Source: Escherichia coli O157:H7 (GTDB taxonomy: Bacteria > Pseudomonadota > Gammaproteobacteria > Enterobacterales > Enterobacteriaceae). From it: a stretch of 64,000 nucleotides of DNA. Position numbers: made by a program. This document shows, piece after piece, positions 16,900 through 19,800 of this stretch (the stretch's first letter is position 1; each line of letters starts with the position of its first letter). Where the stretch lies: the NCBI RefSeq assembly GCF_013167455.1, contig NZ_CP038328.1. One strand, 5' to 3'.

Positions 16900-19800
16900 C
16901 TAAACTTGAATAAATTCAATGGCTTTATTGGATATCCGCCGAAAAATGAAACGATGGACACCGAAGCCATGGGTGATTAAAGAGGCCGGATTGTAATAAT
17001 TGTACACTCCGGAGTCAATTCTCTTTCCTTATTTACCGCGCTTTTCCGCACCTTTTCGCAGGGAAAACGTACGGCCTCACACCAGTGAAAACCAGCATGG
17101 CGCGCCGGGTGGAGGATTATACGGGCTGATGGGTAAAGCGCAAGGATCGTCCTGGATCTTTATTAGATCGATTAAGCCAATTTTTGTCTATGGTCATTAA
17201 ATTTTCCAATATGCGGCGTAAATCGTGCCCGCCTCGCGGCAGGATCGTTTACACTTAGCGAGTTCTGGATCATCCTGTGGATAAATCGGGAAAATCTGTG
17301 AGAAACAGAAGATCTCTTGCGCAGTTTAGGCTATGATCCGCGGTCCCGATCGTTTTGCAGGATCTTGATCGGGCATATAACCGCAGACAGCGGTTCGTGC
17401 GTCACCCTCAAGCAGGGTCTTTTCGACGTACGTCAACAATCATGAATGTTTCAGCCTTAGTCATTATCGACTTTTGTTCGAGTGGAGTCCGCCGTGTCAC
17501 TTTCGCTTTGGCAGCAGTGTCTTGCCCGATTGCAGGATGAGTTACCAGCCACAGAATTCAGTATGTGGATACGCCCATTGCAGGCGGAACTGAGCGATAA
17601 CACGCTGGCCCTGTACGCGCCAAACCGTTTTGTCCTCGATTGGGTACGGGACAAGTACCTTAATAATATCAATGGACTGCTAACCAGTTTCTGCGGAGCG
17701 GATGCCCCACAGCTGCGTTTTGAAGTCGGCACCAAATCGGTGACGCAAACGCCACAAGCGGCAGTGACGAGCAACGTCGCGGCCCCTGCACAGGTGGCGC
17801 AAACGCAGCCGCAACGTGCTGCGCCTTCTACGCGCTCAGGTTGGGATAACGTCCCGGCCCCGGCAGAACCGACCTATCGTTCTAACGTAAACGTCAAACA
17901 CACGTTTGATAACTTCGTTGAAGGTAAATCTAACCAACTGGCGCGCGCGGCGGCTCGCCAGGTGGCAGATAACCCTGGCGGTGCCTATAACCCGTTGTTC
18001 CTTTATGGCGGCACGGGTCTGGGTAAAACTCACCTGCTGCATGCGGTGGGTAACGGCATTATGGCGCGCAAGCCGAATGCCAAAGTGGTTTATATGCACT
18101 CCGAGCGCTTTGTTCAGGACATGGTTAAAGCCCTGCAAAACAACGCGATCGAAGAGTTTAAACGCTACTACCGTTCCGTAGATGCACTGCTGATCGACGA
18201 TATTCAGTTTTTTGCTAATAAAGAACGATCTCAGGAAGAGTTTTTCCACACCTTCAACGCCCTGCTGGAAGGTAATCAACAGATCATTCTCACCTCGGAT
18301 CGCTATCCGAAAGAGATCAACGGCGTTGAGGATCGTTTGAAATCCCGCTTCGGCTGGGGGCTGACTGTGGCGATCGAACCGCCAGAGTTAGAAACCCGCG
18401 TGGCGATCCTGATGAAAAAGGCCGACGAAAATGACATTCGTTTGCCAGGCGAAGTGGCGTTCTTTATCGCCAAGCGTCTACGATCTAACGTACGTGAGCT
18501 GGAAGGCGCGCTGAACCGCGTCATTGCCAACGCCAACTTTACCGGACGGGCGATCACTATCGACTTCGTGCGTGAGGCGCTGCGCGACTTGCTGGCATTG
18601 CAGGAAAAACTGGTCACCATCGACAATATTCAGAAGACGGTGGCGGAGTACTACAAGATCAAAGTCGCGGATCTCCTTTCCAAGCGTCGATCCCGCTCGG
18701 TGGCTCGTCCGCGTCAGATGGCGATGGCGCTGGCGAAAGAGCTGACTAACCACAGTCTGCCAGAGATTGGCGATGCGTTTGGTGGTCGTGACCACACTAC
18801 GGTGCTTCATGCCTGCCGGAAGATCGAGCAGCTGCGTGAAGAGAGCCACGATATCAAAGAAGATTTTTCAAATTTAATCAGAACATTGTCATCGTAAACC
18901 TATGAAATTTACCGTAGAACGTGAGCATTTATTAAAACCGCTACAACAGGTGAGCGGTCCGTTAGGTGGTCGTCCTACGCTACCGATTCTCGGTAATCTG
19001 CTGTTACAGGTTGCTGACGGTACGTTGTCGCTGACCGGTACTGATCTCGAGATGGAAATGGTGGCACGCGTTGCGCTGGTTCAGCCACACGAGCCAGGAG
19101 CGACGACCGTTCCGGCGCGCAAATTCTTTGATATCTGCCGTGGTCTGCCTGAAGGCGCGGAAATTGCCGTGCAGCTGGAAGGTGAGCGGATGCTGGTGCG
19201 CTCCGGGCGTAGCCGTTTTTCGCTGTCTACCCTGCCAGCGGCGGATTTCCCGAACCTCGATGACTGGCAGAGTGAAGTCGAATTTACCCTGCCGCAGGCG
19301 ACGATGAAGCGTCTGATTGAAGCGACCCAGTTTTCTATGGCGCATCAGGACGTTCGCTATTACTTAAACGGTATGCTGTTTGAAACCGAAGGTGAAGAAC
19401 TGCGCACCGTAGCGACCGACGGCCACCGTCTGGCGGTCTGTTCAATGCCAATTGGTCAATCTTTGCCAAGCCATTCGGTGATCGTGCCGCGTAAAGGCGT
19501 GATTGAACTGATGCGTATGCTCGACGGCGGCGATAATCCGCTGCGTGTGCAGATTGGCAGCAACAATATTCGCGCCCACGTTGGCGACTTTATCTTCACC
19601 TCTAAACTGGTGGATGGTCGCTTCCCGGATTACCGCCGCGTTCTGCCGAAGAATCCGGACAAACATCTGGAAGCAGGCTGCGATCTCCTCAAGCAGGCGT
19701 TTGCTCGCGCGGCAATTCTCTCTAACGAGAAATTCCGCGGTGTGCGCCTGTATGTCAGCGAAAACCAGCTGAAAATCACCGCCAACAACCCGGAACAGGA

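Follow-up and report, generated by a model that had tools for sequence, protein, structure and literature searches.

The dnaA regulatory region of an Escherichia coli O157:H7-type chromosome, with a consensus DnaA box between two promoters and a dense GATC cluster

The DNA analysed here, a 64-kb stretch referred to below as the window, comes from an E. coli chromosome of the O157:H7 type. In the ORF list, a block of minus-strand genes (mnmE, yidC, yidD, rnpA and rpmH) ends at 16887 and a plus-strand series (dnaA, dnaN, recF and gyrB) begins at about 17.5 kb. An earlier note on this DNA had placed the dnaA promoter region at 17200–17493 (the interval) and taken its surroundings to be a replication-gene context, which is borne out by the presence of dnaA–dnaN–recF–gyrB directly downstream. 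The identity of the promoter region is equally clear from the 607-bp rpmH–dnaA spacer, which in alignment is 99% identical to that of K-12 MG1655 and 100% identical to those of many O157:H7 and O145 genomes, and which 5424 of the 5426 complete E. coli genomes carry, chromosomal every time. The translation of dnaA opens VSLSLWQQC. An upstream in-frame GTG at 17482 is the start given in the mechanical ORF list and differs from the annotated dnaA start at 17494; since the last base of the interval, 17493, is one base 5′ of the RefSeq GTG, the misassignment of the dnaA start that the note had allowed for did not occur. The following features were located.

16747–16887, minus strand: rpmH, from the ORF list and the RefSeq annotation of identical sequence
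17018–16990, minus strand: near-consensus sigma-70 promoter TTGACT-17-TACAAT directed toward rpmH, from the consensus scan
17117–17197, minus strand: ysdD, a 26-codon ORF (MTIDKNWLNRSNKDPGRSLRFTHQPV) divergent from dnaA, from the RefSeq annotation
17145–17169, no strand: three upstream GATC sites (17145, 17155 and 17166), outside the interval and inside ysdD, identical in K-12
17243–17255, plus strand: GATC (17243–17246) followed by TACACT (17250–17255), the probable dnaAp1 −10
17268–17272, no strand: lineage-variable GATC (17268–17271), arising from TCA, 4 bp upstream of DnaA box 1
17276–17284, minus strand: DnaA box 1, a consensus, high-affinity autoregulation site, reading TGTGGATAA on the plus and TTATCCACA on the minus strand
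17297–17305, minus strand: degenerate DnaA-box-like TGTGAGAAA with three mismatches, oriented as box 1
17310–17315, plus strand: AGATCT, the dnaAp2 −35, holding the GATC at 17311; the sole AGATCT in the spacer
17332–17337, plus strand: TATGAT, the dnaAp2 −10, overlapping the GATC at 17335–17338 (TATGATC, 17332–17338)
17338–17343, plus strand: CCGCGG discriminator ('Travers box'), 3′ of the P2 −10
17345–17493, plus strand: 5′ untranslated leader of dnaA for transcription from P2, about 150 nt, its start placed according to where the −10 lies
17348–17370, no strand: three GATC sites (17348, 17361 and 17367) just 3′ of the P2 start, putative SeqA targets
17494–18897, plus strand: dnaA coding sequence, GTG start, 467 aa, from the RefSeq annotation of identical O157:H7 sequence

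The reference for this arrangement is the K-12 region as described by Hansen and Atlung (PMC5835720), in which two promoters have a DnaA box between them, nine GATC sites fall within 225 bp, and more DnaA sites lie upstream of and over P2; the same article reviews the work on dnaAp1 and dnaAp2 (Hansen et al. 1982; Braun & Wright 1986; Campbell & Kleckner 1990; Speck et al. 1999). The K-12 region is the same locus, with the same gene order rpmH, ysdD, dnaA, and the comparison with the dnaAp1/p2 region that the note had proposed as a check located all of the described landmarks, unchanged. Thus box 1, AGATCT, TATGATC, CCGCGG and all nine K-12 GATC sites are identical here. The differences from K-12 are three single substitutions near 17068–17088, in the rpmH-proximal part, and a 3-bp replacement at 17270–17272 (AAG in K-12, TCA here), which is the one departure of note. 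We are therefore almost certainly looking at the native E. coli dnaA regulatory region, in which a consensus DnaA box has the distal promoter P1 on one side and the stronger, proximal P2 on the other, and found no evidence that contradicts this reading. The region is a well-studied, textbook dnaA control region, already known, and holds no new biology as such.

Placement of the two promoters deserves some comment, because a sigma-70 consensus scan of 16700–17700 returned only the promoter in the rpmH direction and one terminator-like hairpin after ysdD, and called neither P1 nor P2 of dnaA. Their hexamers are far from consensus, so the scan says little about them, and their placement is consequently based on the literature and on conservation. 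For P1, the hexamer TACACT lies within the conserved GATCGTTTACACT, and GATCG(T/A)TTACACT is conserved in Enterobacteriaceae; TACACT is likely to be the −10 of the distal dnaAp1. It precedes the P2 −10 by exactly 82 bp, a distance that we take to be the published P1–P2 spacing. DnaA box 1 sits between this candidate P1 −10 and the P2 −35/−10 (17310–17337), and P1 has indeed been located upstream of the DnaA box (PMC5835720, PMC8203912). For P2, a spacer of 16 bp, read from the sequence, separates AGATCT from TATGAT, and the published description gives dnaA2p one GATC in its −35, another in its −10 and a CCGCGG discriminator 5′ of +1 (PMC5835720). AGATCT is in addition the 6-mer ATP-DnaA box (PMC8203912). 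Among the aligned E. coli haplotypes, box 1 (unchanged in all four), AGATCT, TATGATC, CCGCGG and the three downstream GATC sites are invariant.

The putative P2 leader shows no sign of being structured: the predicted RNA fold of 17345–17500 has a z-score of −1.2 and is no stabler than shuffled sequences, and an Rfam scan of 15500–19500 at E ≤ 1 gave no match in the promoter or leader. The sole match in that scan was to AsdA (RF02674) within dnaA, full-length, at 18004–18084 on the minus strand (101.9 bits, E = 1.4e-21). AsdA is an antisense RNA to the dnaA mRNA described in Salmonella Typhi. A full-text paper search with the sequence flanking box 1 matched only the S. Typhi AsdA paper, where it occurs as a primer; this primer, asdA-R, was used in constructing the asdA strains. 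Its sequence stops at the DnaA box, and the cloned S. Typhi antisense fragment therefore spans the promoter region.

Because the region lies between divergent genes, one may ask whether its elements mainly serve the ysdD and rpmH–rnpA units rather than dnaA. The start codon of ysdD (17197, minus strand) abuts the interval and three GATC sites lie inside the gene; the ysdD promoter must be located within 17198–17300 on the minus strand and thus must overlap the dnaA P1/box region. Yet the conserved block of −35, −10 and discriminator points toward dnaA, which makes a primary role for ysdD or rpmH unlikely, and published fusions show control of dnaA transcription that depends on the DnaA box and on GATC sites (PMC5835720, bioRxiv 10.1101/2023.03.30.533363). 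In addition, the strong consensus promoter in the rpmH direction, presumably a major rpmH–rnpA promoter, is far upstream, at 17018 to 16990. We consider it very improbable that the divergent units are the main beneficiaries, while a secondary effect of the elements on ysdD is possible. A literature search on ysdD returned nothing relevant. Beyond the ysdD stop codon comes a hairpin with a run of T that resembles a terminator (17108–17092, minus strand).

The note had drawn attention to two kinds of element, the DnaA box and the GATC cluster. The consensus box that the note had reported at 17276–17284 is present there, TGTGGATAA on the plus strand being TTATCCACA on the minus strand, and the role of DnaA box 1 in dnaA autoregulation is documented (PMC5835720, PMC8203912). 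The degenerate TGTGAGAAA, which lies 3′ of box 1 and 5′ of the P2 −35, may correspond to 'DnaA box 2' of Speck et al. 1999; CTGTGNNNAA is kept in 38 of 45 Enterobacterales, and within Enterobacteriaceae CTGTGAGAAACAGAAGATCT hardly varies. Further DnaA boxes are known to exist between box 1 and P2 (PMC5835720, PMC4585315). As for the GATC sites, the note's count was six or more over about 120 bp; there are in fact seven within 128 bp of the interval (17243, 17268, 17311, 17335, 17348, 17361 and 17367; span 17243–17370), and ten within 226 bp when the three just upstream of the interval are included. Those three, internal to ysdD, belong to the classical set of nine GATC sites in 225 bp (PMC5835720), and the ten sites here are the nine of K-12 plus the polymorphic one. 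Five SeqA GATC sites have been described, two in the P2 −10 and −35 and three 3′ of the start (bioRxiv 10.1101/2023.03.30.533363), a layout matched by 17311, 17335 and the three downstream sites. The second-densest GATC cluster of the window, 15 sites in about 680 bp (18147–18825), is inside the dnaA coding sequence. SeqA is also bound to GATC sites within the dnaA gene according to a preprint, and this internal cluster probably belongs to the same sequestration domain.

It could be argued that the box and the cluster are products of chance or of base composition and have no regulatory role. Taken over the whole window, the counts would agree with this: a pattern search with TTATNCACA gave two matches in 64 kb against 2.17 expected, so that a lone consensus 9-mer has no significance at the scale of the window, and the GATC total is unremarkable (253 found against 237 expected). 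The only consensus TTATCCACA box besides box 1 is at 8082–8090 on the plus strand, inside tnaB, a frequency expected by chance. Locally, the figures are different. By direct calculation, the chance of a box in the pre-specified region of about 290 bp upstream of dnaA is 2 × 290/4^9, or about 0.002. The GATC cluster is the densest in the window, where the mean spacing is 253 bp; when the 253 sites were placed at random in 2000 trials, at least seven sites in 130 bp occurred in 0.3% of trials and at least ten in 230 bp in none of the 2000.

Conservation beyond E. coli speaks to the same question. Loci were collected from species-representative genomes with a degenerate-pattern scan for the DnaA N-terminus F-x-M-W-I-R-P-L-Q, which returned 120 loci, and for each locus with enough flank 350–400 nt upstream of the aligned dnaA start were taken. 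The groups compared as follows, TGTGGATAA being counted in the dnaA-strand orientation and the GATC enrichment being relative to the locus background.

Free-living Enterobacterales (n = 46): median 8 GATC per 350 nt upstream, 4.5 times background; TGTGGATAA in 45 of 46
Shewanellaceae/Ferrimonas (n = 4): median 11.5 GATC per 350 nt, 6.6 times background; TGTGGATAA in 4 of 4
Aeromonadales (n = 10): median 6 GATC per 350 nt, 2.1 times background; TGTGGATAA in 0 of 10
Pseudomonadales/Oceanospirillales (n = 10): median 1 GATC per 350 nt, 0.4 times background; TGTGGATAA in 5 of 10
Enterobacterales endosymbionts (n = 8): median 1.5 GATC per 350 nt, 1.5 times background; TGTGGATAA in 3 of 8

The Pseudomonadales/Oceanospirillales are not known to have Dam or SeqA. 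In a second set of 45 free-living Enterobacterales, picked by the N-terminal peptide and thus a slightly different selection from the 46 above, TGTGGATAA was present in the dnaA-strand orientation within 400 nt upstream in all 45 and within 350 nt in 44. GATCT follows within 50 nt of the box in 44 of these 45, TATGATC is found in 43, and in 42 there is at least one GATC within 50 nt 3′ of the P2-type −10. In the alignment, the succession CCTGTGGATAA...CTGTGAGAAACAGAAGATCTCT...TTTAGGCTATGATCCGCGG is almost unchanged across Enterobacteriaceae and the flanks diverge. Since the box and the promoter-embedded GATC sites are conserved across species while their flanks diverge, they are under selection rather than due to chance. 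The position and orientation of the box, GATCT and TATGATC, kept in 43–45 of 45 Enterobacterales within an otherwise diverging spacer, together with a local GATC density that random placement essentially never reaches, effectively refute an origin by chance, which decades of K-12 genetics in support of function also contradict; we give it practically no credence. A separate observation concerns Aeromonas, in which nine loci (L021, L044, L074, L076, L096, L097, L099, L103 and L115) have five to seven GATC sites within 130 bp upstream of dnaA. In these loci a TTWTNCACA box was not found within 350 nt upstream of dnaA, and their autoregulatory site, if any, is not arranged as in the enterics.

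Finally, the location of the replication origin has to be considered. The note had read the dnaA promoter as confirming that oriC is elsewhere. The location itself is correct, as mapped separately, although the promoter alone would not show it, because oriC adjoins dnaA in other orders. Window positions 1–51 correspond exactly to 4,785,050–4,785,000 of the O157:H7 strain PV15-279, as collinearity predicted, and K-12 oriC aligns in the mnmG–mioC spacer of PV15-279, at approximately 4,816,781–4,817,012. This mapping puts oriC outside the window, about 31.7 kb past position 1 and at a distance of about 49 kb from DnaA box 1. A blastn comparison of K-12 MG1655 oriC with the window gave only chance matches of 11–12 nt (E > 1), one of which is box 1. 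The distance between dnaA and oriC is thus about 49 kb compared with about 42 kb in K-12. On the oriC side of dnaA, the K-12-like backbone is broken by O157-type island genes at about 1–1170 and about 10711–12880, namely the type III secretion effector gene espY4 and a frameshifted gene for an effector of the ShET2/EspL2 family, and further insertions, among them an lpf fimbrial operon and other effector genes, lie beyond the window; these islands and insertions account for the longer distance. That the cluster might itself be a replication origin adjoining dnaA, or part of one, as in Pseudomonas or Bacillus, is suggested by the GATC clusters and DnaA boxes that also mark enterobacterial oriC and by several Pseudomonadales/Moraxellaceae loci with multiple consensus boxes upstream of dnaA, but with a single consensus box, no AT-rich 13-mer repeats, no significant K-12 oriC alignment in the window and the oriC of a collinear O157:H7 genome sited between mnmG and mioC, the idea is so improbable that we reject it.

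Two systems close to the native dnaA regulatory region are worth comparing with it. Like this region, oriC has TTATCCACA boxes and a roughly 10-fold excess of GATC and is sequestered by SeqA (PMC5835720); it differs in having several consensus boxes (R1, R2 and R4), AT-rich 13-mers and its mnmG–mioC position, none of which were found here. The mioC promoter region likewise has one consensus DnaA box, together with several weaker boxes set close to one another, and DnaA-ATP represses it (PMC4585315, PMC5835720), but it is a different locus, beside oriC, and is reported not to be sequestered (PMC5835720).

How the region would operate in this strain can be proposed from the published K-12 experiments, the sites being identical; protein binding, methylation and sequestration are inferred on that basis, whereas the sequence itself establishes the identity of the region, the landmark positions, the GATC excess and the conservation across species. 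DnaA, best as DnaA-ATP, would bind box 1, the weaker boxes near it and the AGATCT element over the P2 −35. In so doing it would repress its own transcription, whereas at low occupancy it would activate P2. Repression of both dnaA promoters by DnaA has been put at 4- to 5-fold (PMC5835720, PMC8203912, PMC4585315), and activation of P2 by DnaA at low occupancy has been reported (bioRxiv 10.1101/2023.03.30.533363). Dam would methylate the GATC cluster, and full methylation of the GATC sites in the P2 −35 and −10 would be expected to raise P2 activity about 2-fold, as described for Dam methylation of these sites (PMC5835720). Passage of a fork that started at oriC, at a distance of about 49 kb, would leave the GATC sites hemimethylated and open to binding by SeqA, which would then silence both promoters for about one-fifth of a generation and so help to prevent re-initiation. 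The published period of silence after the fork is about one-fifth of the doubling time, or roughly 10 min (PMC5835720, bioRxiv 10.1101/2023.03.30.533363).

The replacement at 17270–17272 is the one feature of the region that departs from the reference. The substitution of TCA for AAG creates the tenth GATC (17268), absent from K-12, which falls inside the early transcribed region of P1. Of 5423 complete E. coli genomes, 1455 (about 27%) have a 61-mer of the TCA type, 3410 have the K-12-type 61-mer, which differs by three mismatches, and 558 belong to a further variant class. An identical CTGGATCATCCTGTGGATAA is found in Citrobacter werkmanii and a K-12-like form in E. albertii, which suggests that AAG/TCA is an old or a recombined polymorphism. 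Among the 45 species, eight have a GATC at most 16 nt upstream of the box and 16 have one at most 12 nt downstream. The extra Dam/SeqA site of the TCA haplotype could conceivably alter the time of sequestration, the occupancy of box 1 by DnaA or the output of P1 to a measurable extent, although we think this rather unlikely.

Correct recognition of the region anchors the window, placing dnaA–dnaN–recF–gyrB on a chromosome of the O157:H7 type with oriC about 49 kb away, and the identity of the dnaA promoter accounts for the densest GATC cluster that the window contains. Should the unlikely effect of the TCA haplotype prove true, TCA would be a naturally occurring regulatory polymorphism, possibly a trans-species one, within the circuit that initiates replication. 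The dnaA control region itself is a core part of the control by which E. coli replicates its chromosome once per cycle.
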